Assembly (NCBI GenBank): GCA_964521165.1
Contig: CAZFRA010000003.1
Span: 10,076-74,075, forward strand
From: an uncultured Lachnospiraceae bacterium
GTDB taxonomy: Bacteria > Bacillota > Clostridia > Christensenellales > UBA1242
Length of the DNA: 64,000 bases
Direction of reading: 5' to 3'
Part shown: piece after piece, positions 1 to 41,181 of the stretch
Position numbering within the stretch: position 1 is the first letter of the stretch
How the letters are laid out: every line of letters begins with the position of its first letter
Translations under genes and position numbers: made by a program
Notes under the pieces: model-generated
What the model was told of the DNA's origin: nothing
Databases searched by the model: none
What the model saw: only the letters and a program-made list of their open reading frames with translations

Positions 1-1
1 A

Positions 2-4995: not shown

Positions 4996-4996
4996 A

Positions 4997-5023
4997 AAAG
5001 AGCAAAACCGCTCTTTTTTTTAT
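4997..5023 (+). terminator. Probable rho-independent terminator after jag
   Basis: AAAGAGC-AAAACC-GCTCTTT hairpin followed by a T-run. The stem is short and A/T-extended. Confidence 0.45.
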
Positions 5024-5241
5024 TACATTTTTCTAAATAAATAAAAAAATAAAAAATTTGGAAAAAATAAAAAAATGTATAAATTTAAATAAAAAGAACT
5101 AATAAAATAAGGAATTAACAATTTATTATTTATCTTTATTTATGGTATTTTCATTAATTTTTATTGATTTTTTTAATATTTTCTTATTATTTTTTAAATT
5201 TTTTCATTATTTTTAACAAATAATGTTTATTTTTTTGAAAA

Positions 5242-6006
5242 TTATAAACACAAATCCAGAATTAACATAAGAACAAAACCGAACATAAATGACCATACAC
5301 CAACAGTTGTTTTTTCGTTTATGTGAAGTTCAGGTAAAAGTTCTTCAATAACCACATATATCATTGCGCCGGCGGAAAATGATAAGAGCCAAGGCATAAG
5401 GAAAGTAAGTTTGCTCGCCAGAAAAAAGCCAAAAATGGCAAAAACAGGTTCAACAATTCCGCTTAAACTGCCAAAAACAAACGCTTTTCTTTTACTTTTT
5501 AAGGTTTGATACATTGGAAGTGCCACCGCCAAACCTTCAGGAAAATTTTGTAAAGCAATACCAACAGCAACCATAATTGCCGGTAAAAAATTGCCGGAAG
5601 TGGCAAAAACTGCGCCAAAAGCAAATCCAACTGAAAGTCCTTCGGGAATATTGTGCACAGTAACGGCGGTGAAGAGTTTATATGCCTTAAACCGCGTTTT
5701 ATCCTTTTGTAAACTCGAAAAATGCCCGGTGATTATGTCTAAAAGAACCATAAAAATACCACCAAAAAGGAAACCGAACGCGACAGGAAAAATAAAAAAG
5801 TCTCCAAAATACGTTTCTGAATATTCAATTGCGGGAAAGAGCAATGACCAAATTGACGCAGAAAGCATTATTCCAGATGCGAAACCTATGGTCAACATAT
5901 TGACAAGAGTGGACGGTTTCTTTAAGAAGAAAACGCAACTTGCGCCCAAAGTTGTCATAATAAAGATGATTGTAAAGCCGATTACGATGTAAAAAATATC
6001 ACTCAT
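5242..6006 (-). CDS. ZIP-family (ZupT-like) divalent metal transporter
   Basis: A polytopic membrane protein with the ZIP signatures HNIPEGLSVGFAF and LQNFPEGLAVALP. I prefer the ATG at 6006 (MSDIFYIV..., 254 aa) over the track's TTG at 6075, which has no SD. Confidence 0.8.
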   Translation of the reverse strand: MSDIFYIVIGFTIIFIMTTLGASCVFFLKKPSTLVNMLTIGFASGIMLSASIWSLLFPAIEYSETYFGDFFIFPVAFGFLFGGIFMVLLDIITGHFSSLQKDKTRFKAYKLFTAVTVHNIPEGLSVGFAFGAVFATSGNFLPAIMVAVGIALQNFPEGLAVALPMYQTLKSKRKAFVFGSLSGIVEPVFAIFGFFLASKLTFLMPWLLSFSAGAMIYVVIEELLPELHINEKTTVGVWSFMFGFVLMLILDLCL

Positions 6007-6374
6007 AATTTTCTCATAAGTTTGTTTTGGTGAACAAAAATGCACCTTAGTATCATCGTATGTTAAAAAAGACAATTTCGTTCGACAGGTAAAAAAAATT
6101 AAAAAATATCAAAAAAATTCATAAAAAATTAATATTTTTTCATAAAAAATGGGTATTTTTTCAAATTTTTCTAAATTTAAACCTAATTTTATTAATTTTT
6201 TGAATAAAAATTTAAAAATAGCAAAAAATACAAGAAAAAACGCAAAAAAAATTAAAAAAAATTTAATTTTTTGAAAATTTATAATTACGGATATATCGTT
6301 AAAGTAGCAATTTTGCTGAAATCTTTCTTTTGAGCATCATAAAAATAATTTTTTTAATTTTCTAGACAATAAAT

Positions 6375-6404
6375 TTGACTTTTTATGCACACTTTATTTA
6401 TAAT
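6375..6404 (+). promoter_or_regulatory. Candidate promoter for the giant ORF
   Basis: TTGACT at 6375-6380, an 18-nt spacer, and TATAAT at 6399-6404. An AGGAGA SD at 6458-6463 lies 6 nt before ATG 6470. It sits at the end of a roughly 300-bp A-tract-rich region. Confidence 0.4.
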
Positions 6405-6469
6405 ATTAAAAAAGGGGATTTTCTGCAATTTTTTAAGACTGCCCTGAAAGAATTTTTAGGAGACTAGTT

Positions 6470-9400
6470 ATGGAATATTTAAGACGAAAATTTGGGTTTA
6501 TAATTTTTGCGAGTATTTTGATGCTTGTAACAACTTGTGGACTCGGAACAAGTTTTTTACTTGGCGCGTCAACAACAAGTTACCTATCACAAGAATTGAA
6601 GGAGGACGATGAAGGCAAAGTATCCGCCTTGTCTGATGATACTACTGTATACAACGGTAAGTATGAAACATCGGCGTTGAGTTTTTCATCGGGCGACAGT
6701 GTGGATATTATCAACTCTTTAATTGTGACAGATTCAACTTCAATGTTGGGAAGTTTGGATGGGGTTGATATTCAAATTTCTAACTCAATTTTCGTTTACA
6801 CTGGCGCAGGAACAGCAACACTATTTTCGTCCAGCAATTCTTCGTCAAGCATAAAAATCGACAATGTTGTTCTTTATGCAAGTAATGGCGGTTCGTTTAA
6901 TGTGGATGATATTAACACAAGTATGATTGTTGGCGGACTTGTTTATGGCTCCATCGCCAGCAATGTAACTTATTACTATGATTATAGTGACAGCAAAGAA
7001 TTTAAAGAAATTGGAGCAAATTTAACCACGCTTTTGGGACAAGTAAGTTTCCTAGCTTCTAATACATATACTTTTGATGGCACGATTTACACAATTTGGA
7101 ATGGTTCATGGATGTTTAACAATAATGGTTGGGCTTATGCTGCAACAGAATATATTGAGTCAGCAAGTGCGTCAAGTACCCCTTGGAATAGTCTTGAAGG
7201 GGTATATCCGTATCCTGCACAATACATTTTGGATTATGCAGAAATAGATACAAATGAAGTTGTCTATTTATATGCAGGCGTTGGAGATGAATATGAATCG
7301 TCTAAAATCACTGTTTATCTCTCTGAATCAAACAAAATTGGGTTAGATAATACTTTTATTTTATCAAGAACTGGATATAGACAAGTGGGTTGGTACGTGT
7401 ATCCTGATTCAATTGGAACAGGAAATCATTCGACAGAAGTTATAATAAATTTTGACAATTATCCAAATGGCATTTCGCTTTACGCAGCGTGGGAAATTGC
7501 AAATTATACAATCACATACAATGCGAACGGTGGGAGTGTTTCATCTTCTACTGAATCTTACACCATTGAAGATACAGTCACTTTGGAAGAACCAACACGC
7601 ACTGGCTATGAATTCGACGGTTGGAAACCAGAGTCAACTGTTGGTAGTTGGGATAGTGGCAAAATATACAGTGATGAAGAGGAATTTTCTGGAATGTATG
7701 GCGATGTCACACTTGTTGCTCAATGGTCAGCATTGATGATTAAAGTTAATATCGACCTTAATGACTCAACTGCAAAAACAGATTCAAGTTCTGCAAACGG
7801 CTCAACGGCGGTAACTGGTGACACAATGCTTTCTTATGAAACAAACGGCGTTTATATTAGATATAACACTACAAACATATATTCCGACAGCGCCGGAGAA
7901 AACCAAATTACCAGTCTTGCACCAACACGCACTGGTTATGCATTTGCAGGATTTGCTTTATCAGCAAATTCTTCTGCCGTTATTATCGATGCAAACGGCG
8001 TTCTTTTGTATAACTGGACAACGACTAATATCAGCTCAAGTGCTGCCACCGATGAAGGAGTAACATTGTATGCTATTTGGACGGCAGAAACTTACAGTAT
8101 AACATATTATTATCGCAATTCAAGTGGGACGCAAACTTCAACAACAGACTCAAGAACATTTGATTCAAGTTTCGAAACATTATCATCTGTCAGTGGAATA
8201 TATTCATCAAATGGTTGGAGTTTAATTGGTTGGTCGACAAGTGATTCAAGCACGAGCGCAACTTATTCAGTAGGCGAAACTGTTTCAGATTACAATTCAA
8301 GCACCGATACTCTTTCGTTTTATGCGATTGCTTCACGAACAATACAAATAACCTACGATGCAAACGCGGGAAGTGATACGGTTTCTAGTCTGCCGAGTTC
8401 GCAAAGTGCGACGCAGAATTGGAATATGTATAATAATGTGTATAATGTTGAAAGTTTAACGATAAATTCAACTGAGCCGACACGGACGGGCTATACCTTC
8501 CTTGGTTGGTCAACAGATAGTTCGGCAAGTGCAGCGGATTCAAGTTATGCAGGTGGTACCACTGTTAATTTCACCTACAGCAGTTTAGCAAGTATCCCAC
8601 TTTATGCCGTTTGGCAAGCGAATACATACTCAGTGACGGTTAATGCGAATGGCGGAACAAATGGTAACCAAACAATTAGTTCTGTGTCTTATGATGAAGC
8701 AACAAAAATTGATCTTGATATTAGTTGGGAAAAAGACGGGTACAGTTCGGCTGGTTATTTCTGGGCGTATGAAATTGATGAAGAACCTGGCTCTTACACA
8801 ACAATTGATAGTTGGGAAGAAGTGACCGGTGAAGGGAACTATTATTATAACGGGCAGTATTATTATGTCCAAGTTGCAACTACTGTGAACAATTTGAATT
8901 TAACAGATCCAGGAATTTATTATTATGACGATGACGGCGACTATTATGTTTACAACTTAACATCAGAGAATGGCGGAAATGCGACAATTTATGTTCTTTG
9001 GGATGTGGACCAAGCATATGAATACAAAGTAAACTTTATTGAATTGAACGCAAGCGAAAATGTAACTATTTTAATTTCAACTAATGATTCAAGTTCAGAA
9101 ATTTCTGAAGGTGGTACTTTCGCAATTTATGGAGCGTATAACGCAACGATAACTGTGACTGTGCAACTTGGTTTTAGTAGTAATTATTATTACTATGTAT
9201 CTTCAAGCGAGTTAAGTGCGGCACCTGAATCACTTGGAACTGGCGATTTTATAACATCAACAAACAGTAAAACTTTCACTTTAGGTGGCACTAATGGTTA
9301 TGGCACCACACTGAATTTGTATTTATATCAAGTATACACTATTGAATATGAAGACGGAGAAGGTGGAAGTATTGAAAGTATTGCCACCCAATATAAACTC

Positions 9401-12400
9401 CACGGGTTCAATGTGAATCTAGCGTCAAGACCTAGTTCGGTTTATAAAAATGGTTATACTTTCACTAACTGGACTGATACTAATGGTTCAACAAATTACG
9501 ATTTTGGAGCATCTTATTCTAACAATGCTTCAGTTGTTTTAATTCCAAACTACACAGCAAGAACGATAAATTTTGTGATTAATGCCAACACAATTGAAGA
9601 TGCGGACTATAATGTTGAAGTTGCAAGTTATACTGTTTCGGCATTATATGGTAATACAACTTTAAATGAAGGATTCAGTATTCCAATTGTTTCTGTTGTG
9701 GATGAAGATAGAGAAACTGTTACAAATATTATTGTGTGGTTTGTTTATTTTGACGGCACAACAGAATATGAACTCATCAATGGTCAAAGTGCAACAATGG
9801 ATAGCGGGTGGTATACATATTTATTATTAGATTCAGATTTGTTTGGCGGCTCTAACGATAGTGATGCAGTGACAATTACTTTTAGTGCAGAGGAAGGCTC
9901 GGGCAGTTACTATTTAAAATATCAATTTGTAAACTCGACGATTACCTATCAAAATGAAGATGGAGTGGAACAAGGAACAAGTTCTTATAGTTATGATAGT
10001 AATATTACAATAGCTGATTACACTAATTCTGTCTCTAAAAACGGCTATACTTTTACCGGTTGGAAGGTTGTTTCGGTTGATATAGGTAACGGAGCAGTGG
10101 ACGAAACTGGCACAACAGTTGGCGGTTGGACAATTGGAGAAATATTAACAATAACATCTGGCACAATTGAAAACTCTTCTGGAAGACATGGTAATGTTGT
10201 TCTACGACCTGATTATAGTGCGATAACCTACACAATCACATATACAGGTGGAAGTGGTTATGGCACAGCAAATGTTCCAGCCAATGGGTCTTATACAATC
10301 GATAGTGCAACAACATTCACAGATGCATCACGTACCGGATATGAGTTTACCGGTTGGAAGGTTGTTTCGGTTGATATAGGTAACGGAGCAGTGGACGAAA
10401 CTGGCACAACAGTTGGCGGTTGGACAATTGGTGACACATATACTAGAACAACAGAAGATTCAAACTATGGCGATATTGTTTTGGAAGCGCAATGGAGTGC
10501 TATCTCTTATTCAATTCAATACAATTCTGGCATATCTAGCGCAGCATCCATTCCAAACTCAACGTCTTATACAATCGATAGTACAACAACATTCACAGAT
10601 GCATCACGCACTGGCTATATCTTCCAAGGTTGGTATGTTTCAGAAGTTACAATCGATGGTTACACATACACATCAGGAACTTACGGCGGTTGGACGATTG
10701 GTAATGAGTATACAGGAACAGAAGCGGGTCAATACGGTAATATCACTTTGATAGCAATATGGGATCCAATCACATATGACATATCCTTTGATGATAATGC
10801 GAACGACGTAGAAGGCACGACTCCAACTACAATAACTGCAACTTATGATGTTGTAACCACATTACCATTTTCCGATGTTTCTCTTATACGCGCCGGTTAT
10901 ACCTTTAAGGGTTGGGCGAGAGATGCTGATGGTACAGATTTTACCGGCCTATCAACTGATGGAAATGATAACTACATCTACGCAACCAATTTAACAACCA
11001 CAGATGGTGGGACAGTGACTCTTTTTGCTTATTGGGTGGCGGACGTTATCCAAATCCAACTTGATCCAGGCAATGACTACACCATACAAGGAGATACGTA
11101 CATATACTTAATGTATGATGAAGGTTGGTATAGTGACTCATCTGCAACCGACGCAATCACTTCAATCACCATTCCAGTGCGCACCGGCTACACTTTTAAA
11201 GGTTATTACACCGGTGAAGGCGGTGAAGGAACAAAAATTATTGATGCTGACGGCAGTATAATTAGTGGAAATTTAACCTTTACTTCAACATCAACAATTC
11301 TTTATGCTTATTGGGTGGGCAACCTTATTGAAGTGGAGTTGAATTTAAATGATAAAAACAACGGAAATGGCTCGACAGAAGCAAGTCTTTCTGTGACTTA
11401 TGTGGGTGGTGGCGTAGCAGAAATAACAAACAACACGGTTTACATTCGATACGGCTCAACGGAAATGTATGCTGGTAAAAGTGACGCTGATGATACGGAA
11501 GCGGTCGGCGGACAAATTATTGTTACGGCAAGTCGATATGGCTACACTTTTAATGGGTTTACTGCATCATCGGGAACGAGCACTACAATAATCAATAGTA
11601 ATGGTTCTGTTGTGGACAGTGGGTTTACATCTTCCAGTTCCAGCACAACAATTTATGCTTCGTGGACAGCAGAAGAAATTACTATTAACCTTAACTTGAA
11701 CTATGGTGACTTAGCAACAGGAGAATCGACGCCAACCCTCCCTGGCGACGACGAGTCGTTTACAATTACCTTTGACGGAACTGTAGAGTCTAGTTCAATT
11801 CCAATTGCAACGTGGACATCTGATGGTACAACATTATATACCTTTTCAGGTTATGCTACTGCAAGTGGAGTTCTTATTATCAACTCTGACGGCAGTTTGG
11901 TGGCAAATGTGTCGGGTTATACTGACGAAAATGGCAACTGGATTTACGTACCAGATGATTTGTCTACAACAGTGACTCTTTACGCACAATGGACGGCTTA
12001 TGAAATTGGTGTGGCCTTTAGCCCTAATGGTTCTGGTGCAACAATTAACGGATCTTCAGAGACATACACTTGTGACATTTCGCTTTCCGATGGTTTTGAT
12101 TTTGCAGAAGTAAGCAACAAAACAGTTAGGAATGGATATAGATTGCTTGGTTGGGCCACATCCGAAACTGCAGGAAGTCCAACATATTCCACAAGTTATT
12201 CATTTGCTGCAAACAGCGCCGAGTTAGAACGGTTCTTGGTTTCAGGTCAAACTCTTTACGCAATTTGGGAGATAATAGAATATACAATCACTTTCGACCT
12301 ACAAGACGGAGAATGGTCAGCATCAGAAGGACTGACTTTAAATGAATCGAATGAATTAACCTTCACAATCGAGAGAGATCTTTCGAGTATTTCTGTGACA

Positions 12401-27400: not shown

Positions 27401-30400
27401 ACATCATACTCCGATGAAGCAGCAATCACAATGAACTCTGGAACCTTCTCTGATTTTAATGAGAGTTTAGCAACTCAAACCTTCACTCTATATGCTCAAT
27501 GGACGGAAAGCACAAGCACACCATATTATGTGGAAGTTTACTTAATGGACACAATGGGTGGGTACGACGAAACTGAACCATCCGAAACCAAAACTTATTA
27601 TGGTAGGACTGACACAACAATTGAAGTGACAGTGAGCGGCGATGAAACAACAATCACTTTCACTAACAACAGCATCAACAATACATTGTCTTATACAGGC
27701 TTCACAGTGTCAAGTTACACTCCAGAAGGAGAAACATCAGTTTCGGGCAGTGAAGACACATATACAACCTTCAAAGTATACTTTGCTCGCAATATCTACA
27801 CCTTAACCTTAACGGCTGAAACAGGTGCAATTGCGAACTATGTAACAACAGATGTGGACAGCGAAACAAGTGGATATCAATACTACTACGAGCAAGAAGT
27901 TACAATCACGGCAACAATCTCGACAGGCTACACTTTTGCAGGCTGGCAAGTGGACAGTGGCGTAACACCATCGTCAATGAGTAGTCAAACAAATGGCAAT
28001 GTTGTAACAACCACTTTCAAAATGGGACTTGGCGACACCACACTCTTGGCACAAGTTACTGTAAATTCTTATAAACTTTATATCGACCTTGACGCGACAG
28101 ATGCGACCTATAATGATTCGACTTTGGAAGAAGGCTATTATGTTGAGCAAGCATATGGCACAACATATACTCTATTTACGCCATATCGCGCAGGCTATAC
28201 ATTCACAGGCTGGACTTTGGAAGGTTTGGACGGTTTCACTCCAACTGAACTTAGTGGAAGTACATACACATTTGGTGCAGGTGACGCCAAAGTGACAGCA
28301 AATTGGTCGGCAAATAGATATCAAGTAAACTTCGTTTTGAACGATTCGAACAATTCCAACGGCTCAACAGCAGTCACATCAATCACGGTTGGCGAAACGA
28401 GTTTAACAATCACCAACGGAGTTGTAAGTTTGTATGCAGTGTTTAACAGCACTTATGCAACTCTTTATATATATGCAGAAGGTGAAACTTCAATCACATT
28501 CGACGCTTTTGTTGCAGCAATTGAAAGAGATGGTTACACCTTTGGTGGTTTCTATAACACTCAACTTTCAATTGGCGCTCCAACGGATAGCGCGACCGAA
28601 CTTACTTCAAGTGATACACACACGAACTACTCATCCATATCCACATATTACGGATATTGGACGGCAAACACTTACAACTTAACAATCGCTGGCGACAATG
28701 TTACCGTAAGTGTTAGTGGTGCAACAGGTGAAAACAATTCGTATGGTGTTAAATTCGACGCTAGAATTACTTTAACGGCGGAAGTAAGCATAGGTTATTA
28801 CTTTGTTAACTTCGAATCCACACCGTTTACATCCACTGACAACCCATATACATTTAACTACACAACAGCAGACGATGTGATAATCACGGCAAATGTTTCG
28901 GCATATAATTACACAATCCAATATGATAACAACACAGGCTCGGGTAATTTGGACGATACACCTGCAACTTATGACCAAGCAGTTGCTCTTGACGATGCTA
29001 GTGATTTGGCAAAACCTGGATATGCCTTTACGAGTTGGTCGACAACACAAGACGCTGAAGATTATACCGAAATCAGCGGAACGTTAAGTGGTGACGGCAC
29101 CGAAGCAGATTTGGTTACTGCTTACATCAAAGAAGAATATAACAGTGCAAGCGGAATTTACTATTATAACGGCACTTTCTATGCTTTCAACTTACTTGCA
29201 ACACAAGGCACAACAACCGTTTATGCACAATGGTCGCAAATTAATTATAATGTTAACATTAACGAGCAAAATGGCAATAACGCAACAGAAGTTAATGACT
29301 TAACAAACGTTGGATATAACATCGCAGTTGAAATTGTTGGTGGTGAAGATTTGTTAAGACAAGGCTACACCCTTGCAGGCTTCTCCACAAGCCAAACTGC
29401 ACTTTCAAACTTCACAACAATCTCAACAGAAACATTGGCACCGGTTAGCGGAACAGATGATGCAGTGACCTTGACAAGTTATTTGATAACAAACAATATG
29501 TCCGGCGGAATTTACTACTATAATGGCAAATATTATGTCTTCAACTTAACAACCACCAATGAAACAGTACAAATCTATGCAATTTGGACAGAGTCGACTT
29601 CTTATTATATTATTGAATATTATTTCGAAGGACTTAACTACTCATATCTTCTCGAGCCTGACGATACGGAAACAATTGAAAGTGTAACAACAGGCACATC
29701 AGTGACAATCACTCCAAAAACAGTCACTGGTTTCACAATTGACTACAATAACAGCACTTCTTTAACCGGTACTGTGACTGGCGACGATAGTCCACTCACA
29801 TTCAAACTTTACTACACACGCAACACGTATACTGTTCAAGTTTACACTCCTTCTTTTGAAACAGATGTTACTGGCGTAAGGAATATTGAGGTGACGGCAG
29901 AATATTCAACAGATACAAATTATAAATATAACGACAGCGTAACTGTGACTGTGACTCTTGAAGACGGCTACACCTTCAAAAACTTCACAGAAGGTGTCAA
30001 CACCTATGAAAGCGAAAGCGACGGCGTAACAGTTAACGGCAGCACCGTGACATTTAAATTCAACATCACAGCAGACAGAGTTTTAACCCTTAATCTTACA
30101 CGCGGAGAATACACCGTCACAATCAAACATATGTTTGCAACTTTGGGTGGCGGATATGAATCACTCGAAGGATTTGAAGAAGGTACTACAACATCAATGT
30201 ATGTTGACCACACAATCACCGAAGATGATTTGGAAGACTTCATTTTGTCCGATAGTGAAATTTCTGGCTACACCTATTCTTCATTTAGCGGTATCACAGT
30301 TTCAACAACAGTAGAAAATAATGTTGTAACAATTTATTACGCTCGCAGAACATACACTTTAAGTCTTGACCAAACAAACACTGGTGTTTCCAAGGTGTCG

Positions 30401-39400: not shown

Positions 39401-40996
39401 ACAGGCACAACCACAAAAACTTTATATGCAATTGTTGGCACAAGTGATGTGATTGTAACAATCAATATTGACCCAGAAAACACAATGTTTGAAGTCAACT
39501 TCTATTTCCAAGATGTTGTCGATTACCAAGATGCAAGTGATAGAAATATTAACAATTATACAAAGGGATGGACTATCAATTCTTTGGCTTATACCAACAC
39601 GGCAATTAACCAAAGTTATATCCAAACAAACTTCATGGACGAAGACAAAATTACCCAACTTAGCGGTTATGACGAAAACAACTTCATAGGCTTCGACTTG
39701 ACGAATTGGTGGTTTGACGGCACTGGTATTTCAAATAATCAAATTAACGTTGCGGGTGATAACTCAACGGTTGTCAATATCTACATCAACAGAATTGTCG
39801 TAAGTGTTACTGTTGGTGTGGATAATACCAACCAAATCAATACTGGAACGATCGGCGGTAACACAAGGTATGTTTATGGAGCCGAAGTGACCATAACCTT
39901 CTCGACTCATGCTGGCTATCTCTTCGAATACATGACAATTAATGGCACAAGAGTGGACGAGAATGCTGATAACTTGACGCTAACTGACCCTAAGGCAGAA
40001 GGAAATAATAACATTCAAACTGTCACATACACCTTCACAATCACCACTGATATATTGAATGCAAACGGCGGAATTTCCATTCAAGTGTCCAGTAAAGCCG
40101 GCACGGCAGACTACGAAATCATGCTTCGTTATCAAGAAATCAATCTCGATATGTGGCAAAGTGGTTCTTCGGTATATGATGATGTCACTATAACCATAAC
40201 GGGTACAACGGATAGTTATATTGACTATTCTGAATATTTAACTCCACCTGCTGGTTATACTTTAGTTAGTGATAACTATTCGTCAAGCACACCAACCGTT
40301 TCGGGTAATGGAACGACGCAAATTGTATTAACCTTCAATTTGAATGTTTACACATTTACCGTGACTTTGCAAGAAGGTATTGAATCAGTTGAAGTTGATA
40401 GCAATTATGGAACTGTGATTTATAATGAAGTAAATTCAGTATATCAAGTATATTACACCGATTTGATTAGTTTCACAGTTAGAACACAGTATGGTTATAC
40501 CTTCACAGGTATTAGTCTTAAACTTAGCACAGACGATTCTTTCAGCAGACAAGATAACTCAACGAGTGAAACCTATCGTTTGGAAGTTCCAGCGAGCGAC
40601 TTTGAAGTGCGAATCAATGCAGAACCAACACCGATTATCATATACTACTATCCAAACTTCGACACTAACACGCCAGTTTATGAAGGCGCCGTTTACGGCG
40701 AGACCATATATCTTCGATTGAATACATTCACGCGTGATGGCTACACCTTCCTTGGTTGGGCAACAAGTGAAGAAAATGCTCTCAACGGCATTGTGGAATA
40801 TGAAGACGGTGCTGAATTCACAATCACAGTCGGAAGCAACATAGCTTTCTATGCTGTATGGCAAAGAGATTCAGGAATTGAATGGTGGATTTGGCTCTTG
40901 CTCGGTCTCTTGCTCTTGCTTATTCTTATCATAGTAATCATAATTATTATTGTGATGAAGAAAAAGAAAGAGAAAGAAAAACTTAGAAGCCACTAA
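6470..40996 (+). CDS. Giant (11,508 aa) modular cell-surface protein. It combines InlB B-repeat (Listeria-Bacteroides repeat) units and MucBP-like units and has a C-terminal transmembrane anchor. It is a putative adhesin.
   Basis: - One uninterrupted 34,527-nt ORF with a good SD.
- The N-terminal hydrophobic segment is FGFIIFASILMLVTTCGLG.
- By-eye count, the body holds about 60 units of the form GY.F.GW...[LIV]YA.W.
- There are about 20 units of the form Y.[IV].Y....LDG.Y....[IVL]Y[FY].R..Y.L.
- Each of those is followed by a G[IV].SV...GY.F..W unit.
- The C terminus is WWIWLLLGLLLLLILIIVIIIIIVM plus KKKKEKEKLRSH.
- A strong terminator follows. Confidence 0.9.
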   Translation: MEYLRRKFGFIIFASILMLVTTCGLGTSFLLGASTTSYLSQELKEDDEGKVSALSDDTTVYNGKYETSALSFSSGDSVDIINSLIVTDSTSMLGSLDGVDIQISNSIFVYTGAGTATLFSSSNSSSSIKIDNVVLYASNGGSFNVDDINTSMIVGGLVYGSIASNVTYYYDYSDSKEFKEIGANLTTLLGQVSFLASNTYTFDGTIYTIWNGSWMFNNNGWAYAATEYIESASASSTPWNSLEGVYPYPAQYILDYAEIDTNEVVYLYAGVGDEYESSKITVYLSESNKIGLDNTFILSRTGYRQVGWYVYPDSIGTGNHSTEVIINFDNYPNGISLYAAWEIANYTITYNANGGSVSSSTESYTIEDTVTLEEPTRTGYEFDGWKPESTVGSWDSGKIYSDEEEFSGMYGDVTLVAQWSALMIKVNIDLNDSTAKTDSSSANGSTAVTGDTMLSYETNGVYIRYNTTNIYSDSAGENQITSLAPTRTGYAFAGFALSANSSAVIIDANGVLLYNWTTTNISSSAATDEGVTLYAIWTAETYSITYYYRNSSGTQTSTTDSRTFDSSFETLSSVSGIYSSNGWSLIGWSTSDSSTSATYSVGETVSDYNSSTDTLSFYAIASRTIQITYDANAGSDTVSSLPSSQSATQNWNMYNNVYNVESLTINSTEPTRTGYTFLGWSTDSSASAADSSYAGGTTVNFTYSSLASIPLYAVWQANTYSVTVNANGGTNGNQTISSVSYDEATKIDLDISWEKDGYSSAGYFWAYEIDEEPGSYTTIDSWEEVTGEGNYYYNGQYYYVQVATTVNNLNLTDPGIYYYDDDGDYYVYNLTSENGGNATIYVLWDVDQAYEYKVNFIELNASENVTILISTNDSSSEISEGGTFAIYGAYNATITVTVQLGFSSNYYYYVSSSELSAAPESLGTGDFITSTNSKTFTLGGTNGYGTTLNLYLYQVYTIEYEDGEGGSIESIATQYKLHGFNVNLASRPSSVYKNGYTFTNWTDTNGSTNYDFGASYSNNASVVLIPNYTARTINFVINANTIEDADYNVEVASYTVSALYGNTTLNEGFSIPIVSVVDEDRETVTNIIVWFVYFDGTTEYELINGQSATMDSGWYTYLLLDSDLFGGSNDSDAVTITFSAEEGSGSYYLKYQFVNSTITYQNEDGVEQGTSSYSYDSNITIADYTNSVSKNGYTFTGWKVVSVDIGNGAVDETGTTVGGWTIGEILTITSGTIENSSGRHGNVVLRPDYSAITYTITYTGGSGYGTANVPANGSYTIDSATTFTDASRTGYEFTGWKVVSVDIGNGAVDETGTTVGGWTIGDTYTRTTEDSNYGDIVLEAQWSAISYSIQYNSGISSAASIPNSTSYTIDSTTTFTDASRTGYIFQGWYVSEVTIDGYTYTSGTYGGWTIGNEYTGTEAGQYGNITLIAIWDPITYDISFDDNANDVEGTTPTTITATYDVVTTLPFSDVSLIRAGYTFKGWARDADGTDFTGLSTDGNDNYIYATNLTTTDGGTVTLFAYWVADVIQIQLDPGNDYTIQGDTYIYLMYDEGWYSDSSATDAITSITIPVRTGYTFKGYYTGEGGEGTKIIDADGSIISGNLTFTSTSTILYAYWVGNLIEVELNLNDKNNGNGSTEASLSVTYVGGGVAEITNNTVYIRYGSTEMYAGKSDADDTEAVGGQIIVTASRYGYTFNGFTASSGTSTTIINSNGSVVDSGFTSSSSSTTIYASWTAEEITINLNLNYGDLATGESTPTLPGDDESFTITFDGTVESSSIPIATWTSDGTTLYTFSGYATASGVLIINSDGSLVANVSGYTDENGNWIYVPDDLSTTVTLYAQWTAYEIGVAFSPNGSGATINGSSETYTCDISLSDGFDFAEVSNKTVRNGYRLLGWATSETAGSPTYSTSYSFAANSAELERFLVSGQTLYAIWEIIEYTITFDLQDGEWSASEGLTLNESNELTFTIERDLSSISVTKTGYELKGWEITAIVDETNNWGSVGDTVTSLESGYYGSVSLKAILSPIEYTITYDVADGDALADNTERYTIETDLTLVTPTRAGHKFLYWTVSSEVGNWTESIEYSGYVGTGMYGNVTLIAQWEAITYTINLVDLQFVDYITLSSFDTGVTAGSSVEIYLEFSGSGEVLTNTTFGFNTTSSTVYYGSLSGAFTTAVSSGTQILYIGNSGAVLNTAINNISFASASGFSGNVVLGAVSVYRFKIWENGTLTHDYMPTITSNGQVGLYDLVTGVFTAITGATAASTYLGDTYTSRTTTTTSVVFAGSFSNTPSTANSPTGFRFIGWANADGELVITFDSNNSASLVANVSGYTDEYGNWALADNTTLYAAFEAISYSVTVYYSSAQVTNSIDLNIGLSNFSFGSESESVSSNGTFTATRDFLNTGLTLTITASENYYIVIGTSSNNISYDSALASRGTATYTWTPTSNLTLYVAVYQIYTITYNANGGTNPPNASEKVHGVSITLADASSMVNNGFTFQGWSTSITDGSVNYDNEATFVENGDTTLYAVWEAITYHITYVANGGGFFSESGGYGDTIEGETVVVEYTVEDEVILFGDIFSTGATDQYEKYVRVYKNGYTLVFWELSYNAAGGISGWSASQNDRYNPFFTILENDVYYGDVTLTAVWSETPITYTITYDVNGGGALANNTQGYTIETDLTLVTPTRDGYSFTGWQLDTTTGVTGTADGSDGNWTNGSTNYKDNIGTGFHGNVTLVAQWSVINDYTIVYDPNGGTLSGATSGTYGINNSIILPDSETIARDGYTFTGWKVISVDIGNGEVTDTGEIVGGWEVGETYTGTIEAGKYGNIRLEAQWAVASTSYTINIYTQTLDTYNTMASLTGTAYTETVIDSTFLTSVLSVVAGSNVNLNGFYIGSDGVLTLNDDYTISDTVEIGGYQTIAGSGTVINLYYKYETYTITYTTTYGSFTDGYTQTYNIYTFVNGLTLFISPDNVAYTAYDLSGWTILESSAGYISWTAAFGTGTYSSILGGSGYNIDSTRAYGDVTLTAVWEATTYTITYDVNSGDALSNNTASYTIEDTFTLVTPMRTGFAFDGWRPESTVGSWNSGTTYSGQVSGMYGNVTLVAQWSPLKVLVNIDLNDSTAKTASSSANGSTAVTDATMLSYETYGVYIEYNSKNIYSDSAGENLIASLVPTRVGYEFVGFALSVGGNAIIDANGTLLNDWTTEIDTNAGTNGALTLYALWTAKTYTIIFNSNDSAQSTTSQTFTFDGTAQTLTANGFTRTGYTFQGWALFSTGESVVFLTDEESFAFNATTLESITTAGGSIGANDSLTLYAVWAALTISVIFNLNDGDGGSTSAYFNNDPSLITLTMTVRYDRTFSELTNSGEVAATGVPVVTRYGYIDAGWFTSSDGAGLQMTAETSVSDFEDYIINWGSTPTLTLYVQWTALSIVVVYNSNYGTESSTYTAATNATFDSSYTIIGYDSITSFTARTGYTFAGWNTSADGNGTSVSVGDLDPFNLPYVTSLDSSQYIYTTTLYAQWTPNPFTITLDGNDTDENPTTYVFGYSESDATISTDYSQTVILTAIYEREGYTFQGWATSETAETPEYNSTTSYEASIFYALISTYDANNTNITLYAVWEADPVTITINFYYETLTSARNGSQTDDTTLNTSYYAFDSHDSSLTFDAGTELTTSQLEEWADSFILSLETRAAYKGYTTSGDNNSLVVLGDGSLEINLYFTRGSYELTINVGTGISSVTVTSQTTSSAITGTTSGSAITYTIYYGETITLSAASNAGYGDPIFTENSDPLASAQLTIISDREISVYANPQVVQYTVRVYIEGLDGEYSIYTGDYTQTLEGLTDTEVIFTYNSPSITLSASGSDTTATYTITGFTYSKYNVGNDVGVNGENTDRTIAGDESLIINLYFTRNSYNLTLTAGTGIVSVTAGDSTGIEITISVRYQDTVTISAVVSGGYSFSTWTYNTVAGFTISSIASSETTITMGAGENTLTANAAIVSYYVTYSAGSLNVVDEGISLPSSESYYVTTDLTLSSSYRTGYNFVGYYVVSVTINNVTTSTDGATAGGWTIGSTIYDNELNVGTGYYGNVTLEAVWMANTYTIEYNINNGTGQVSDTNATYDQAIALESVTNEISRTGYTFSNWGWPYATTSVTTITSDDIASFGGNNDQEILTNYLTTNNSASGIYFYDGVYYAFNLTETSGGTATVYANWTPNTYTIIFYGNGGETETGDTYYYSQEFTYDVSYSTGAPLASQFSRTGYTFTGWNTSADGSGIAYTANDPVYNFTAENGGEVELYAQWSPNRYALTLNAGNGTGTHTVVYAEYASNKLYSNTTDNIEVTPTANQNGYTFTGWYNGDTLVIDSNGTLVSDWMTDDGATLTAGYTANTYEITLNINTTDSVTWLGVSGNGTATVYFTYGSTAIYTSRSDDYPYTASGEIDSVTLSRDGYDFLGFATAANATVADVIGADGTLLSAYFTASDNTLYAVWQVKHYELTIIINEPDEGVVSGLTIFGGVESEEIEGSGNVYSIAYGYTVRINYSVSAGYTFTGFTVSVSVSGSVTISNNEFIMPASNLTVTLNVSANLVSVSLDANDTDGATKVSNLPYSVVYIEYNRTNIYASRSDDYPYTASGDVLTSLVPTRAGYTFKGWATSPTGTPITYESGMLISAWTTSTVDGTTLYAIWEANTNTSFTIHYYLQNIDYDEITYSYVETYNTSGTGTTDNDVDISTYTTGITGFSYSHYVTNNSDSTSLNLAGGGDLIISLYFTRLTSTLTIDLGYGGTSTSVQRFYGDDYEITNPTRDGYTFTGWSGSGENLTAGNGSYTYTFVETNETITAQWTANETTITLSALSGDTGVTIGYTTIYIKYATSQFYIYNGDETETVTPTASKTAYDLEGFYTAGNELIITSLGALNGTQWTITAASITLYAHFSAHEYTITYNAGDGTPTATTDTYTIEDTFTLATADLLGYNFGGWTVYTADGNWSETETYNGQVSGMYGDVTLIAQWTPITYTINYSANDSGLIGEATSSTQSTQETYNVSVTIQENGFILTGYEFVEWNTEPDGSGDSYEAGESYSVNFCSKDGDSITLYAIWEIQSYTLTVEELTTGVASVSVSGAGVTVRNIDQYGVGTYTVVYGSTVTLTATYTDGYMFGSWTITGETSLQGTDIYTDTYSMPAENVSVQANARPIEYLIIYYSNGGTITVGSVSYDTYYEVEIDYMDTTTILAASDTVSFTRTGYTFLGWSTSSTAEVADETYAPGEDYMHTTVGSFSLYAVWKANTYTVTYYADGTEGAASYSDTNATYNSQYTILGNDTTGFSKTGYHFVGWATSGENALNGIVQYSADTSFSYSTDGGMTLYAVWEGNEYTINYDINLGSYYHTTYSGSTLSTTAVYDKSVTIQANDFTLTGYEFVEWNTQPDGNGDSYEAGEPVSVNFCTGEGSDTSVTLYAIWRAIDYTITVVDDSAKGEDAVTGTIITVYFGTAYNSTILTNYSAYTRAGYTLSGFYISGTETMLITSAGLFVAGVTGYIDNDDGDYIYCYAGNITVTAIYTANPYIVNFDVNPRENDEENISISVTSKTVYQDSTYAGTDGVWPEPVYEGYYFFGWSTQNDYVVYHLYSSGAEEAYYNLSFEAIFGSTWLEYVTSESVASTYIYEYTTIDENQIESTIQFVFIKTEALAENFEASSISDILYTVEEVESFTVEAGDTVDGTSWGDNDDDGIADITLYAMWIGRNDIEYTIYYLLEDIEYSSSATEFIEKNADGSYPSYNLVVNSKLNYEGVTYTVAQTEKLSNALVSDNVQNYIRAYEYTGFVYYAYEYVNDTISSNNTTIIFAFYTRQTYTLNLFAGNGIAAVSASGAGVSGEEGVYQVKYGAAVTLSATPSAGYTFEDWTQTSSDQAQVSISNNTFTMNVTSTVNLTATATANSDTEYTIEYWFETLDGGFEQISTLQEDITETGTTDTSLPINTYTINSFAGYSYAYYVSYSTTDTTGTTSGSTNIDGDGGRVIRIYYERNSYLFTFTQNRQTGFTGVNVTVGTESQSETSGISVTYGQSVTISITVYVGYTFNGFISSDTDLIASVSAGNENVVSSSGTGATTYTYTFNMPAGAFTYTADISSDDDTEFTIVYMFEKLDIADSTGVNKYEELSEIYPSTTGTGETEAEITNTLIGDKLISVAGFEVSAVGSMDENGTVSAVYISGDGGSIVYVYYDRISYNVTINYLRASDQSTNLTSSYSETHRFGETFTVTNPTIAGYTTGSASTSVTVIVGGVTENVYYTAISYDITYTTGSGEITSNASEYSDEYDIETAITLPTAGRDGYTFTGWQVTSVDIGSGAVTETGATVGNWTIGTTYSEGSVPAGNYGHVTFTAVWSPILNNVTFNLTNLTTNGSLTVVSGTEYSATLMANSGYSLPESIDVTIANVSFTNFSYDSETGEITISGEYVAGDIVITATGVANRYQVNFVLNDSNNSNGSTEVTSITVGETSLTITNGVVSLYAVFNSTYATLYIYAEGETSITFDAFVAAIERDGYTFGGFYNTQLSIGAPTDSATELTSSDTHTNYSSISTYYGYWTANTNTSYRVEYYFMNLDGSYSNETEYYEELTGTTDAIASAPLYSGDTTGFITPSEITDVTISADGETVIKYFYARMIFTVTVLTGEGVASVTATATSGAASSTATGSTISVYYGGTVVIDATAQNGYTFSGDWTKGDSSYPDLVTASGEGLSSTAKQFTISNISNISNSSITYTATAEPNVITITLDAQNGEYDDDGTTEIYLKYNTGWYSDSDALAENIISSITIPEREGYTFAGYYTEVNGAGTPITDSAGNLSTSVLTFTYTETTIYANWTRNSYDLTITYVYSDTVDNRSNVINTYTTQVAFGVTFEVTSPTVTGYTATSVEVTSPSGFTLTSNSATTISGEMPASAVSITVTYTPKQYTITFDANSGSDSVSGEMESITIYYNQTITLPENEFTRDGYIFLGWNTSANGSGTSYSDEAAITMNSGTFSDFNESLATQTFTLYAQWTESTSTPYYVEVYLMDTMGGYDETEPSETKTYYGRTDTTIEVTVSGDETTITFTNNSINNTLSYTGFTVSSYTPEGETSVSGSEDTYTTFKVYFARNIYTLTLTAETGAIANYVTTDVDSETSGYQYYYEQEVTITATISTGYTFAGWQVDSGVTPSSMSSQTNGNVVTTTFKMGLGDTTLLAQVTVNSYKLYIDLDATDATYNDSTLEEGYYVEQAYGTTYTLFTPYRAGYTFTGWTLEGLDGFTPTELSGSTYTFGAGDAKVTANWSANRYQVNFVLNDSNNSNGSTAVTSITVGETSLTITNGVVSLYAVFNSTYATLYIYAEGETSITFDAFVAAIERDGYTFGGFYNTQLSIGAPTDSATELTSSDTHTNYSSISTYYGYWTANTYNLTIAGDNVTVSVSGATGENNSYGVKFDARITLTAEVSIGYYFVNFESTPFTSTDNPYTFNYTTADDVIITANVSAYNYTIQYDNNTGSGNLDDTPATYDQAVALDDASDLAKPGYAFTSWSTTQDAEDYTEISGTLSGDGTEADLVTAYIKEEYNSASGIYYYNGTFYAFNLLATQGTTTVYAQWSQINYNVNINEQNGNNATEVNDLTNVGYNIAVEIVGGEDLLRQGYTLAGFSTSQTALSNFTTISTETLAPVSGTDDAVTLTSYLITNNMSGGIYYYNGKYYVFNLTTTNETVQIYAIWTESTSYYIIEYYFEGLNYSYLLEPDDTETIESVTTGTSVTITPKTVTGFTIDYNNSTSLTGTVTGDDSPLTFKLYYTRNTYTVQVYTPSFETDVTGVRNIEVTAEYSTDTNYKYNDSVTVTVTLEDGYTFKNFTEGVNTYESESDGVTVNGSTVTFKFNITADRVLTLNLTRGEYTVTIKHMFATLGGGYESLEGFEEGTTTSMYVDHTITEDDLEDFILSDSEISGYTYSSFSGITVSTTVENNVVTIYYARRTYTLSLDQTNTGVSKVSASGTYVTEISETASYITYEVTYGATVTLEYTLNTGYEFSSWGATTGSGATVEVTAGSGTTGTFTMPYENVTVSVRAASEKVQFQFVYYLEGLDGEYYVQDSQDVDIQEAEAGSPIENILEYNLRTFTGYEYSGYDNETIIAAPVMEGLTTTYTQIWVRYTRAFVNITIILGTGVTSVTLTSSETVGDVTVADKFKISTTIETTSNTIQAAYGLRLNLSATYSSGYESVSYIFSDGNVSEDNGIYYIIVPATESTLLATTTSEIVQIMLDAQNGEDDDDGTTTLYLKYGEGWYSDALAENTISSIIIPERTGYIFAGYYTSTGTQIIDSTGNILSGNLTFTVTLATIYAQWTPITYNLTYNGNEGTGTDGSVTSSTFTHDIALTYDVAVALRSDITWSRQGYTFAGFSTSQTGLSNFTTISTETLAPVSGIDDAVTLTSYLTENNMSGGIYYYNGTYYAFNLTSTSGANVPIYVVWDAIKYTITYYANNGTNDSYTTESISYTELVTILNIDNANLGYTLTGYEFNGWNTEPDGSGSNYTAGGQYSGLVDGNTFELYAQWKANTYTINYNGNARDAYNTMTPSTGTYDTASALSPNGFLRIAYTFAGWTTTEGGTTSQVTTISETLTGDGTEADLVTAYIKEEYSSASGIYYYNGTYYAFNLTSTNGGDVTIYVVWDAIEYTITYNANGGSFADQELATQKYTTVSGVELRNNNDITLVGHRLIGYTIEVSGVDANNWLTVYTSAEISLSFSNNDAGSFTISSGLYGNVILTAIWQPLSYNLTINYAYADDSALTGNVATAHTSTRTYATTFDVTSPSITGYYISNVVVTTAPDGFTLSSGTTDSNVAGTMPAGNVIITVYYSPVEIALTINYNKASGTTGTITELDYDTIYVLYGHTYSSAYTKNGDSTSTVGLATLTRTGYTFAGWSLNASGTNAINGNTTVAITSDQEIYAQWTAGTTSFTVNYYFENLYDNGYTIDNDYTQNGSGTTDAQITLAMLRELIGYNDTSTTEFPTVTGFTVDEGLISLTTISADTTTVINVYFTRNYNTLIISRDAQVSSFTVTANTSGAFGEVTAELVRSTNNGNIFEVRYGAIVIVEAAFNAGYEFDSFTATILEGFDGTTNPTTFTMPDASVEILIASTASIFKITLTATDDGVTSEGTTEIYLKYGEGWYSDDSATNAITSITTPTRTGYTFSSYSNGSIIIIDSNGNIVGSTTFTTADIILQAQWNALAYSFTLTTDLGITRENVTITINNNIQDEIPTQVRYGQSITIAVPTGAIVNGYVYSQISYTMAVEGQAGTTSGATESGITTITITVTGALSVTITTTPKTDSQIKVVYALQKLDGTYDITSETEIIDGATTGTPITLAYLIELDAIKSFTGYYYSTFGDAIYNPSDVFTVIYNSNIEGSDDDYTTVYILYLRYHYGLKLTSATGVTSFTIELEASGTGVYSTDFSEWRVLYGAGLYISYALADSSGYIFNGFNIVAIDTTGYGADSSEYSNATRYELEFEQDSSSNIIGVGTYYYMDDNQTRVDVLELTYVDGKYYLSAMPSYYLSITIDVEPRTYQIIYNTNYQDNSMTDTTQTGDSATFGESYIFYSVDEFSWSKSGYSFAGWAFAENPTEVIISNFTDGEYTAIFNSYYARFAEENNGVYTLNLYAVWSTGTSSYTIEYYFEQLDGTYLKSDYTRELTGYTDITVHTSGQEGVQVYVDEGWVDEGVRTGYYIDNNHTDAKMSGEVESDGSLILKVYYTLYRYTLTITSDGNFSALTASASESDGYILGTPSSGSDSVTYQVKYGTTITIAATPNDGYMLYSLSATTATISVESPTFIMTTNTIVVATATARSYEIVFDANGGTGQMPNQEMTFYVSTRLNLNNDQITRQGYTFAGWAISETNANSGTVDYGDGEYFLLSENYSEEVRLYAVWTPSTSSYKVNFVIEGNTLSNDEIENWTVTITGEGTTGETITSAMVTALLADALKNIAGHIYVDGEENFFTISGFTEETTITGDNVTAEVTANFTRVSVSYEIEVNSESEEGVTQLSVTYLDLATKAYTTQTTQTGDISLEFAAAYGVDIVLTVTYANGYGYASFTRYLPTGNGDEEALDTTFTPTRSGSTITFNNGANLSARYEIAVSTGTFTFTYNDNFQGLFTQSSATYSVTVDYLADIILRNPTNWSGVGNWTHTGYSFFAWAYVVADIDNYSYTEISKLSEATEEGYYYVSGTYYYVIEPTTIYGGTYSYDEWNGRILYAIWQANSYDIIYMQQPDGVEGIMDKTEATYDEIVVLATVEFRRTGYTFAGWAFAISNDSVAIEISDFEDITGAGIYYIETTDGETTTRTYYGVNLIDVDGIDNQDGYVNIYPVWTPITYKIVLHSNTTDDYTITIEAVYGLNVTLPLFSDSRFEDWTNAGYDFNGWYYYIDEQTTRTYTGNESTEFSFINLATEEGAEVDLYVNWIAGYTTYSVYVKYQNADGTYDDVIGDNYILVDYYSDRITGTIVTPYEVWDEFNLAESYITTGYQVLNQGNNASPITLQATGTTIIIYISRISYNLYLNNVQGIRTSSVVTTGISTSVINPVQDANGNISYYEVIFGATVTIEYTLLAGYSTPVTYTTYVEGVEFSNNAFTMPTSNLTVEISATADTDTKYAVYIYLEDADGNYGSTADYSVTYEGTTDTQIVGMSLAEYILTQEYVVGGQVISSTYYRFNNMAGDETIKGYEDESDQSVVYIYFARRTFNVTFTTNLQAGLSGRSENILNARFGSSGSLTIVLNQGYLLETPTPLTITIVSAGDDNRNSYDLTYTTIGPSITSEGLTTYTFTFTVPAQNINIQINIEADEVNYTIYYLFQNIDLTDYEEVATVNPVTEQATTGTVLTEADISDYTTSSPLTGFTYSYSSFSAGDITVAGDGSTVINLYFIRIRSIFTIEIYDSYLGLDGNVTIEVQGSPSSSLGGGTYSVAYGQTVTVSVSVLTGYKEATFTVDTLSQSSEAESEENLEIGEYYITGTTTKTLYAIVGTSDVIVTINIDPENTMFEVNFYFQDVVDYQDASDRNINNYTKGWTINSLAYTNTAINQSYIQTNFMDEDKITQLSGYDENNFIGFDLTNWWFDGTGISNNQINVAGDNSTVVNIYINRIVVSVTVGVDNTNQINTGTIGGNTRYVYGAEVTITFSTHAGYLFEYMTINGTRVDENADNLTLTDPKAEGNNNIQTVTYTFTITTDILNANGGISIQVSSKAGTADYEIMLRYQEINLDMWQSGSSVYDDVTITITGTTDSYIDYSEYLTPPAGYTLVSDNYSSSTPTVSGNGTTQIVLTFNLNVYTFTVTLQEGIESVEVDSNYGTVIYNEVNSVYQVYYTDLISFTVRTQYGYTFTGISLKLSTDDSFSRQDNSTSETYRLEVPASDFEVRINAEPTPIIIYYYPNFDTNTPVYEGAVYGETIYLRLNTFTRDGYTFLGWATSEENALNGIVEYEDGAEFTITVGSNIAFYAVWQRDSGIEWWIWLLLGLLLLLILIIVIIIIIVMKKKKEKEKLRSH
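10052..10137 (+). repeat. 86-bp perfect intragenic direct repeat, copy 1 (partner 10346-10431)
   Basis: TTTACCGGTTGGAAGGTTGTTTCGGTTGATATAGGTAACGGAGCAGTGGACGAAACTGGCACAACAGTTGGCGGTTGGACAATTGG is identical at both sites. The offset is 294 bp (98 codons). Confidence 0.9.
10346..10431 (+). repeat. 86-bp perfect intragenic direct repeat, copy 2
   Basis: Identical to 10052-10137. Diverged relatives of the same FTGWKV.SVDIGNG..TETG..VG.W motif lie near 14805-14890 and 25395-25480. Confidence 0.9.
12788..13250 (+). other. Single-copy non-repeat insert domain within the giant protein (candidate lectin/jelly-roll-like module)
   Basis: About 150 aa, INLVDLQFVDYITLSSFDTGV...LGAVSVYRFKIWENGTLTHDYMPTITSNGQVGLYDLVTGVFTAITG. 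It lacks the GY.F.GW/LYA.W periodicity of its neighbours and occurs only once in the ORF. Confidence 0.5.
25798..26160 (+). repeat. 363-bp near-perfect intragenic direct repeat, copy 1 (partner 28309-28671)
   Basis: A by-eye alignment shows 2 mismatches in 363 bp (C/A in CAAGT[C/A]AAC and A/C in ACAG[A/C]AGTC). The offset is exactly 2,511 bp, or 837 codons, so it is in frame. The alternate-frame ORFs at 25923 and 28434 in the track have identical N-terminal translations, which confirms it. Confidence 0.95.
26630..26656 (+). repeat. Tandem 9-bp repeat (ATTAGCAAC)x3 inside the giant ORF
   Basis: Three perfect head-to-tail copies encoding ISNISNISN. They are in frame. Confidence 0.9.
28309..28671 (+). 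repeat. 363-bp near-perfect intragenic direct repeat, copy 2
   Basis: See copy 1. It encodes ANRYQVNFVLNDSNNSNGST.VTSITVGETSLTITNGVVSLYAVFNSTYATLYIYAEGETSITFDAFVAAIERDGYTFGGFYNTQLSIGAPTDSATELTSSDTHTNYSSISTYYGYWTANT. Confidence 0.95.
29090..29175 (+). repeat. 86-bp intragenic direct repeat with 1 mismatch, copy 1 (partner 32279-32364)
   Basis: GGTGACGGCACCGAAGCAGATTTGGTTACTGCTTACATCAAAGAAGAATATA[A/G]CAGTGCAAGCGGAATTTACTATTATAACGGCAC. The offset is 3,189 bp (1,063 codons). Confidence 0.85.
32279..32364 (+). repeat. 86-bp intragenic direct repeat, copy 2
   Basis: See 29090-29175. In addition, 32340-32385 is identical to 31740-31785, a 46-bp stretch encoding GIYYYNGTYYAFNLT. Confidence 0.85.
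40883..40996 (+). other. C-terminal transmembrane anchor and cationic stop-transfer tail of the giant protein
   Basis: A 25-residue hydrophobic helix, WWIWLLLGLLLLLILIIVIIIIIVM, followed by KKKKEKEKLRSH and the stop codon. No LPXTG-type motif precedes it. Confidence 0.8.
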
Positions 40997-41000: not shown

Positions 41001-41036
41001 AAAAAACTCTTGTGGAAAACCATAAGAGTTTTTTTG
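41001..41036 (+). terminator. Rho-independent terminator after the giant ORF
   Basis: A 9-bp stem, CTCTTGTGG (41007-41015) with CCATAAGAG (41020-41028), has one G:U pair and an AAAA loop. T7 follows, and an upstream A-run could extend the stem. Confidence 0.8.
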
Positions 41037-41181
41037 CGCCATGTGTCTTTTTAAAGGTGGAGAAGTAATAACATTGTGCTATTTTAAAGGGTGGAAAAAC
41101 AGACTAAAATTAAATTTAAACAACGCTCAAATGCTTGATATTTTTCTTTGTTTTGTATTAAAATATATGCAGGAGGTATTT

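Follow-up and report, generated by a model that had tools for sequence, protein, structure and literature searches.

The question raised by this stretch of 64,000 nucleotides (contig CAZFRA010000003.1 of assembly GCA_964521165.1, positions 10,076 to 74,075; hereafter the window) is whether an open reading frame (ORF) that continues for 34.5 kb can be a single working gene and, if so, what a bacterium would gain from making a protein of that size. The answer that we regard as probable is that the ORF is one real gene, coding for a 1.25-MDa fibre of the cell surface that is anchored as a type-I membrane protein and whose most likely role is adhesion or tethering.

The frame occupies positions 6470-40996 of the forward strand and contains 11,508 codons plus the stop, translation being interrupted only at its end. 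The closest in-frame stop upstream lies at 6434, which makes the ATG at 6470 the earliest possible start. Given the base composition of the ORF, the probability that 11,508 codons pass without a stop is about 10^-328, and in each of the remaining five frames there are 438-970 stops, none of these frames staying open for more than 159 codons. The start is preceded, at 7 nt, by a Shine-Dalgarno sequence (AGGAG, 6458-6462), and the stop is followed by an intrinsic terminator hairpin on the same strand (41001-41034) with a 15 bp stem, the loop AAAA and a T-run, whose free energy (dG -17.6 kcal/mol, z = -5.15) was equalled in 0 of 200 shuffles, and which a simple consensus scan for terminators had missed. 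The spacer between zupT and the giant gene (395 nt) holds a sigma-70-type promoter sequence, TTGACT-18-TATAAT (6375-6404, +), agreeing with the consensus at 11 of 12 positions; as the number of promoter-like sites in this AT-rich spacer shows no excess over shuffles (4 against 3.7), it is to be taken as a candidate only. Short AT-rich tandem repeats with periods of 10 and 21 lie upstream of it, at 6090-6163. A first-pass annotation of the window, made from the letters alone, had described a stop-free 34.5-kb ORF with its own Shine-Dalgarno sequence and ATG, a candidate promoter and a strong terminator, and all of this is borne out except that the promoter match, good as it is, is no more frequent than chance would provide.

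The product has a molecular weight of 1,249 kDa and an isoelectric point of 4.05, close to the roughly 1.2 MDa estimated earlier, and, as was also noted then, it is rich in Thr (15.6%), Ser (10.3%), Gly (8.9%) and Tyr (8.6%) and poor in Lys (1.16%, with 5 Cys in total), as against 9.4% Lys, 5.3% Thr and 1.7% Cys in the neighbouring proteins. The overall G+C content (GC) of the ORF, 0.40-0.43 as compared with 0.29-0.35 outside it, suggested horizontal transfer, a possibility that was rejected: GC at third codon positions (0.347) equals that of the neighbours (0.352), synonymous codon choice is similar, and the excess resides wholly at codon position 2 (0.464 against 0.319). Thus, the gene is native to its genome, and its GC reflects the amino-acid composition of what it encodes.

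The two ends of the protein indicate how such a chain could be placed at the cell surface. A Kyte-Doolittle hydropathy scan detects clear hydrophobic segments only at amino acids (aa) 7-34 and 11467-11502, with a window at aa 3302-3320 just at the cut-off. The segment at aa 7-34 (6488-6571, +) follows a basic RRK n-region, is conserved in homologues, and is a predicted Sec-type signal peptide or signal anchor. The C-terminal segment belongs to a putative membrane anchor (40868-40993, +) composed of a WWIW motif, a transmembrane helix and a KKKKEKEK tail, the C-terminus reading ...AVWQRDSGIEWWIWLLLGLLLLLILIIVIIIIIVMKKKKEKEKLRSH; the basic tail follows the helix, and the positive-inside rule is therefore satisfied. 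The predicted layout is that of a type-I membrane protein, with nearly all of its mass lying outside the cell, in agreement with the earlier annotation of a surface protein. No LPXTG motif occurs in the C-terminus of the product or in those of its orthologues, and the NCBIfam model NF041738 (GG_III-CTERM) reaches 19.4 bits on the C-terminal 42 aa (E = 6.9e-4), under its cut-off of 22. Among the closer orthologues the pattern formed by WW-x-W, the transmembrane helix and KKKKEK(D/E)K is strongly conserved, and might serve specifically as a signal for sorting or retention.

Almost everything between these ends is made of one kind of domain. An array of at least 107 divergent units of the Flg_new / InlB B-repeat type extends from aa 266 to 11469 (7265-40876, +), with a median unit length of 87 aa and a coverage of 85% of the protein. 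Of these, 86 were found with a hidden Markov model (HMM) iterated from the GY.F.GW sites of the protein itself, and 21 more with a model seeded from the gaps left over; a second type of domain between the units had been considered, and was rejected because the gap model converged on the same repeat family, while a few stretches of 100-215 aa within the array have no unit assigned to them. The Pfam family Flg_new (PF09479) matches the three thirds of the protein with E = 8e-83, 1.6e-57 and 1.9e-31 (273, 191.9 and 108.4 bits, for a cut-off of 27), over 26 stretches; Flg_new_2 (PF18998, the divergent InlB B-repeat) matches 13 stretches, with 91.5 and 48.6 bits in the middle and last thirds and 23.5 bits, marginally under its cut-off of 23.6, in the first; TIGR02543 is reached with 40.5 bits for a cut-off of 20.95, and the hallmark motif GY.F.GW ... 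LYA.W is present in the units. Down to E <= 1, nothing besides these repeat families rose above the Pfam cut-offs.

The fold agrees with the sequence family. A profile (A3) built from the alignment of 24 two-unit tiles of the giant protein matches the crystal structure of the InlB B-repeat, 2Y5P, with E = 3.4e-7, and the AlphaFold model of one such tile (aa 5189-5362; predicted local distance difference test, pLDDT, 80.5) has as its top Foldseek matches the sialidase of T. denticola, 2Y5P, YwfG and InlB 36-392, with a probability of 0.99 and a TMt of 0.68 against 2y5p_C; as the domain is small, these matches attain E-values no better than 0.02-0.2. Both by its sequence and by its predicted beta-grasp fold, then, the repeat unit belongs to the Flg_new / InlB B-repeat family, as the first-pass annotation had recognised from the motif. 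The profile scans that it recommended gave Flg_new and Flg_new_2 above cut-off but failed to do so for MucBP: the whole-protein Pfam scans contain no match to MucBP or MucBP_2, and the only one obtained, with Pfam down to E <= 1, is a sub-threshold MucBP_2 alignment at aa 11122-11306 (18.9 bits for a cut-off of 23.4, E = 0.0021).

Between the signal and the array lies a head of some 230 residues (aa ~35-265; 6572-7264, +), which is predicted to be beta-rich and is specific to the lineage. Among 1.84 billion representative proteins its homologues fall into only about 15 clusters, in all of which the head is found at residue 1 and which all come from contig fragments; a word-indexed search among 5.8 billion proteins returned only 3, and neither a scan of JGI metagenomes with the head alignment nor one of genome contigs with the first 1,200 aa gave any match. 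A Foldseek comparison of the head yielded scattered beta-helix proteins (tailspikes, pectate lyase, PfbA, SRRP) with a best E of 0.1, and was not relied on.

As regards the organism, GlpK, encoded 4 kb downstream of the giant gene, is 89-91% identical to proteins of gut metagenome-assembled genomes labelled "uncultured Clostridia" and 75% identical to that of Candidatus Caccovivens faecavium, a member of the family UBA1242 of the GTDB order Christensenellales whose genome measures 1.1 Mb and has a GC of 34% (PMC8035907). The genomes of UBA1242 measure 0.67-1.6 Mb, are without many biosynthetic pathways and standard transporters, and have been proposed to belong to partner-dependent bacteria, in a paper that makes no mention of a giant gene (PMC12306168). 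The host is thus probably a genome-reduced, partner-dependent gut Clostridium of the Caccovivens / UBA1242 group, which accords with the small AT-rich genome supposed in the first-pass annotation, and of such a genome the giant gene would take up about 2-5%.

The relatives share the slot in which the gene lies, with the order jag-zupT-[giant]-ord-tmk-...-glpK. In 13 GTDB loci the part giant-ord-tmk-...-glpK is kept and the giant ORF, of which 1,261-2,067 codons are visible, is open as far as the edge of the locus, and in every one the final Flg_new unit is followed by the WW-rich transmembrane helix with its basic tail; the synteny on the 3' side recurs in 13 further loci, and the C-terminal anchor architecture is present in both sets (13 + 13). 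On the 5' side, jag-zupT-giant with the same head is found on the contig of another relative (L096; ENA BRZ_BV NODE_9102, 2591-7741), where the N-terminal orthologue stops 28 nt before the end of a contig of 3.4x coverage, probably through an error at the contig end and not by a real truncation. The full lengths of orthologues, taken from the gene tables around homologues of the adjacent ord gene, are 11,670 aa; 13,845 and 13,840 aa (an ENA assembly and NCBI GCA_963614535.1); 12,124 and 12,133 aa; and 8,434 aa twice, in two samples, so that sizes are reproduced across independent samples. One further locus (L086; ENA ERZ2641652 NODE_837, 1-9710) encodes an ord protein identical to that of the locus with the 11,670-aa giant (L083), and its own giant ORF is called as 8,319 aa from a start 142 nt from the contig edge, which is either a truncated call or strain-level variation in size. 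When the C-terminal 1,508 aa were used to look for homologues, the matches were confined to generic Flg_new proteins (0.8-2.4 thousand aa), and the orthologues were not among them. The syntenic loci constitute a giant-gene family of Caccovivens / UBA1242-like gut Clostridia, characterised by the head, the colinear array, the end made of WW, transmembrane helix and basic tail, and the fixed slot.

The array has a long history within this family. Colinear alignment of the C-terminal 3,300 aa with the orthologues gives identities of 42.6%, 32.4% and 26.7%, as compared with 88%, 85% and 77% for the adjacent ord protein; the units have positional orthologues, and the array is therefore old and has not been homogenised. 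The giant protein thus diverges several times faster than its neighbours. Within species, the ratio of non-synonymous to synonymous substitution rates (dN/dS) of the orthologues, over ~3,200 codons, is 0.14-0.30 for most pairs, with a value of 0.71 in one nearly identical pair of strains that has very few differences, and 0.01-0.09 for ord and tmk. Selection, measured on the orthologues and not on the gene of the window, is thus purifying but relaxed, and conservation along the C-terminal part is fairly even, with a peak in the last 150 aa.

With this evidence, two ways in which the ORF could be deprived of meaning can be weighed. One is that it is an artefact of assembly, a chimeric, collapsed or expanded array and not one real gene. 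The sequence probably derives from short-read metagenome data, and the ORF does contain one near-exact repeat of 363 nt (25798-26160 and 28309-28671, +), of which 300 nt are exact and only 2 mismatched, the second copy lying in frame 2,511 nt downstream of the first; such a repeat could permit a wrong copy number. Its identity falls sharply to background at both edges, and it stems either from a gene conversion that recently took place, in frame, between two of the units, or it marks the sole spot where the copy number could be mis-resolved. All the other internal repeats, however, are divergent (60-93% identical as DNA, mostly 60-90%, with a median identity of ~41% between a unit and its closest paralogue), Tandem Repeats Finder detects no tandem DNA repeat inside the ORF, and a collapsed assembly was accordingly rejected except at the 363-nt repeat. 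Moreover, a frame of 11,508 codons is not kept open by chance, orthologues of 8.4-13.8 thousand aa have been assembled independently, with matching sizes, from several samples and by different pipelines, the alignment to them is colinear over 3,300 aa, and the 5' flank (rpmH-rnpA-yidC-...-jag-zupT), together with the first 435 codons of the giant gene, recurs at 100% identity in a Logan assembly made independently (SRR7039262). An artefact thus seems to us very improbable. The other way is that the gene is a decaying or non-functional relic, unexpressed, whose large frame has been kept by chance or is of recent origin. Reduced genomes can indeed carry relics, but more than 20 loci, from species whose GlpK is only 61-91% identical, preserve the orthologous frame unbroken, dN/dS is 0.14-0.30, and the start, the Shine-Dalgarno sequence, the signal peptide and the C-terminal anchor are conserved; genomes of 0.7-1.6 Mb with a coding density of 81-94% (PMC12306168) would not keep 25-42 kb of junk. 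A relic is scarcely credible, even less so than an artefact.

If the gene is real and maintained, its product could work in the following manner. The N-terminal Sec-type signal would direct export, and the C-terminal transmembrane helix with its Lys-rich cytoplasmic tail would retain the protein in the membrane, without a sortase motif. Strung serially between these ends, the small beta-grasp domains, 107 or more of them, would make up a long stalk, acidic and with a high content of Thr, Ser and Tyr, that, at roughly 3-4 nm per domain, might extend for a few hundred nanometres (an estimate and not a measurement). The stalk would hold the lineage-specific head away from the cell, and adhesion could be exerted through the head, the stalk or both, on a partner microbe, on host mucus or epithelium, or on food particles. 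The first-pass annotation had thought of attachment to a host or to particles, which may be so; nevertheless, since the lineage has been proposed to depend on partners, a partner microbe is no less plausible a target than host mucus or food particles.

The main rival to this reading is that the same fibre, present in many copies, is a structural component of the envelope, a spacer coat or "fence" that would shape or protect the surface without any specific ligand, as has been proposed for the Ebh of S. aureus. The signal, the very long repeat rod and the C-terminal transmembrane helix with its basic tail do mirror Ebh, the conservation of the C-terminal 3,300 aa is fairly uniform, and in the product no recognisable ligand-binding domain was identified with Pfam, NCBIfam or Foldseek. 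We nonetheless consider a mere spacer unlikely, in that a conserved lineage-specific head is placed at what would be the distal tip, in that the rapid turnover of sequence with a dN/dS below 1 is typical of proteins that face other organisms, and in that the InlB B-repeat fold occurs mostly in surface-interaction proteins. Several points do weigh against adhesion as the function, and the lack of a ligand-binding domain is one of them. The head matches neither a Pfam nor an NCBIfam family, it has no significant fold match in the PDB, and its AlphaFold2 model reaches confidence in aa 57-190 only (pLDDT 72-94 there), a region modelled as all-beta. Flg_new domains, for their part, are not proven to be adhesive in themselves, the InlB B-repeat being an accessory domain, and, as to the gene itself, the 363-nt repeat leaves a small uncertainty in copy number at 25.8-28.7 kb.

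A tethering fibre, the reading that we prefer, also admits of a more specific form, which is possible but which we put forward as doubtful: the giant protein may be the tether that defines the UBA1242 lineage and is conserved in it, these bacteria being obligately dependent on a partner, as episymbionts or as parasites; the fibre, several hundred nanometres long, would recognise the surface of one particular host microbe or host cell through a stalk and a head that evolve fast. If this were the case, it would be to these monoderm bacteria what attachment devices are to Patescibacteria and giant proteins to Omnitrophota, it would offer a direct molecular handle for finding the partner of the lineage, and the interest of the gene would rise. 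In any event, a gene that takes up about 2-5% of such a genome, that keeps a fixed position, that remains intact at 8-14 thousand codons and that evolves several times faster than its neighbours must be central to the lifestyle of its bearers. UBA1242-type bacteria are widespread, uncultured gut organisms and have been linked to growth traits in chickens (PMC13155120), and in them the gene is a target for the search for partners or ligands with the head as bait, for cryo-electron tomography or fluorescence in situ hybridization on gut samples, and for strain typing. The array is, besides, a clean natural example of very long repeats that have not been homogenised and that short-read assemblers can resolve.

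The genes around the giant ORF are of a more ordinary nature. At its 5' end the window begins with the tail of an ABC-ATPase-like ORF, and the upstream cluster comprises rpmH (434-568), rnpA (572-901), a yidD-like ORF (870-1142), yidC (1130-2452) and, after a kinase and deoD, jag (4177-4995). Clusters of the type rpmH-rnpA-yidD-yidC-jag flank the origin of replication (oriC) in many Bacillota, and proximity to oriC was considered for this reason; the window contains neither a dnaA gene nor a cluster of DnaA boxes, and no such claim is made. The cumulative GC skew rises over the flanks and dips within the giant ORF, from which the giant gene is probably co-oriented with replication. Downstream, the ORF at 41041-42333, similar to DapB / 2,4-diaminopentanoate dehydrogenase, is listed as 430 aa, and, because its many homologues have 375-378 aa, translation probably begins in reality near 41197, a position that lies beyond both the terminator and a TTGATA-18-TAAAAT site (41135-41164).

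Beside the slot of the giant gene lies a glycerol utilisation cluster (45139-49388), conserved in all relatives, with glpK on the reverse strand, a DAO/Fer2_BFD oxidoreductase and a Pyr_redox_2 protein, to which the relatives add a DUF1667 gene. Three paralogous membrane proteins of the TMEM164 family (PF14808) are encoded within 5 kb (49832-50644, -; 53025-53786, +; 53788-54666, +), one of the three being also conserved in related loci. The ORF at 57052-58047 codes for a WG_beta_rep (PF14903) repeat protein in which the motif TTATCAACA recurs at 57216, 57315, 57522 and 57621, a recurrence that indicates internal DNA repeats. Rfam returned no RNA families within the window.

When compared with known systems, the giant protein shares with the InlB B-repeat / Flg_new family (PF09479, TIGR02543; 2Y5P) the sequence family and the predicted fold of its unit, although the InlB of Listeria monocytogenes has a single B-repeat in a protein of 630 aa attached through GW modules, whereas here the 107 or more units fill nearly all of the 11,508 aa and the anchor is a transmembrane helix. 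In its overall design and in its size it resembles the Ebh of S. aureus and the Embp of S. epidermidis, proteins of ~1.1 MDa with an N-terminal signal, an enormous tandem-repeat rod, a C-terminal membrane span and a positively charged tail, and without LPXTG. The repeats of Ebh are, however, helical (FIVAR-GA, DUF1542), and in the whole-protein Pfam scans, which returned only Flg_new and Flg_new_2, neither FIVAR/GA nor DUF1542 was found, so that the two are analogous and not homologous. The adhesins with RTX (repeats-in-toxin) sequences exported by type I secretion systems (LapA, SiiE, MpIBP) are likewise megadalton fibres in which tandem domains of beta-sandwich type extend a ligand-binding region, but they have a C-terminal type I secretion signal, RTX repeats, BIg domains and a module for retention in the outer membrane, in place of which the giant protein carries a Sec-type signal at its N-terminus and a transmembrane anchor at its C-terminus, with no Pfam match to RTX repeats or BIg domains. 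In other words, Ebh and Embp are analogous in design and the giant RTX adhesins in function, and neither shares the repeat family of the giant protein.

Closely comparable, too, are the proteins of 10,000-30,000 aa with Listeria-Bacteroides repeats reported from gut Clostridia, for which surface binding was suggested in a passing sentence that also names YG repeats, dockerins and leucine-rich repeats (West-Roberts et al. 2023, bioRxiv 10.1101/2023.11.21.568195). They are of the same class, very large and rich in the same repeat; the family presented here differs in being defined by its head, its C-terminal transmembrane anchor, its fixed slot and its reduced-genome, UBA1242-like hosts. The first-pass annotation had placed the protein among the largest in bacteria, and large it is, although far from the record, since proteins of up to 85,804 aa have been predicted (bioRxiv 10.1101/2023.11.21.568195). 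A search of the literature found no paper on this syntenic family or on its link to reduced-genome UBA1242-like bacteria. In summary, this is a new, well-defined and previously undescribed family within the known class of giant repeat adhesins.

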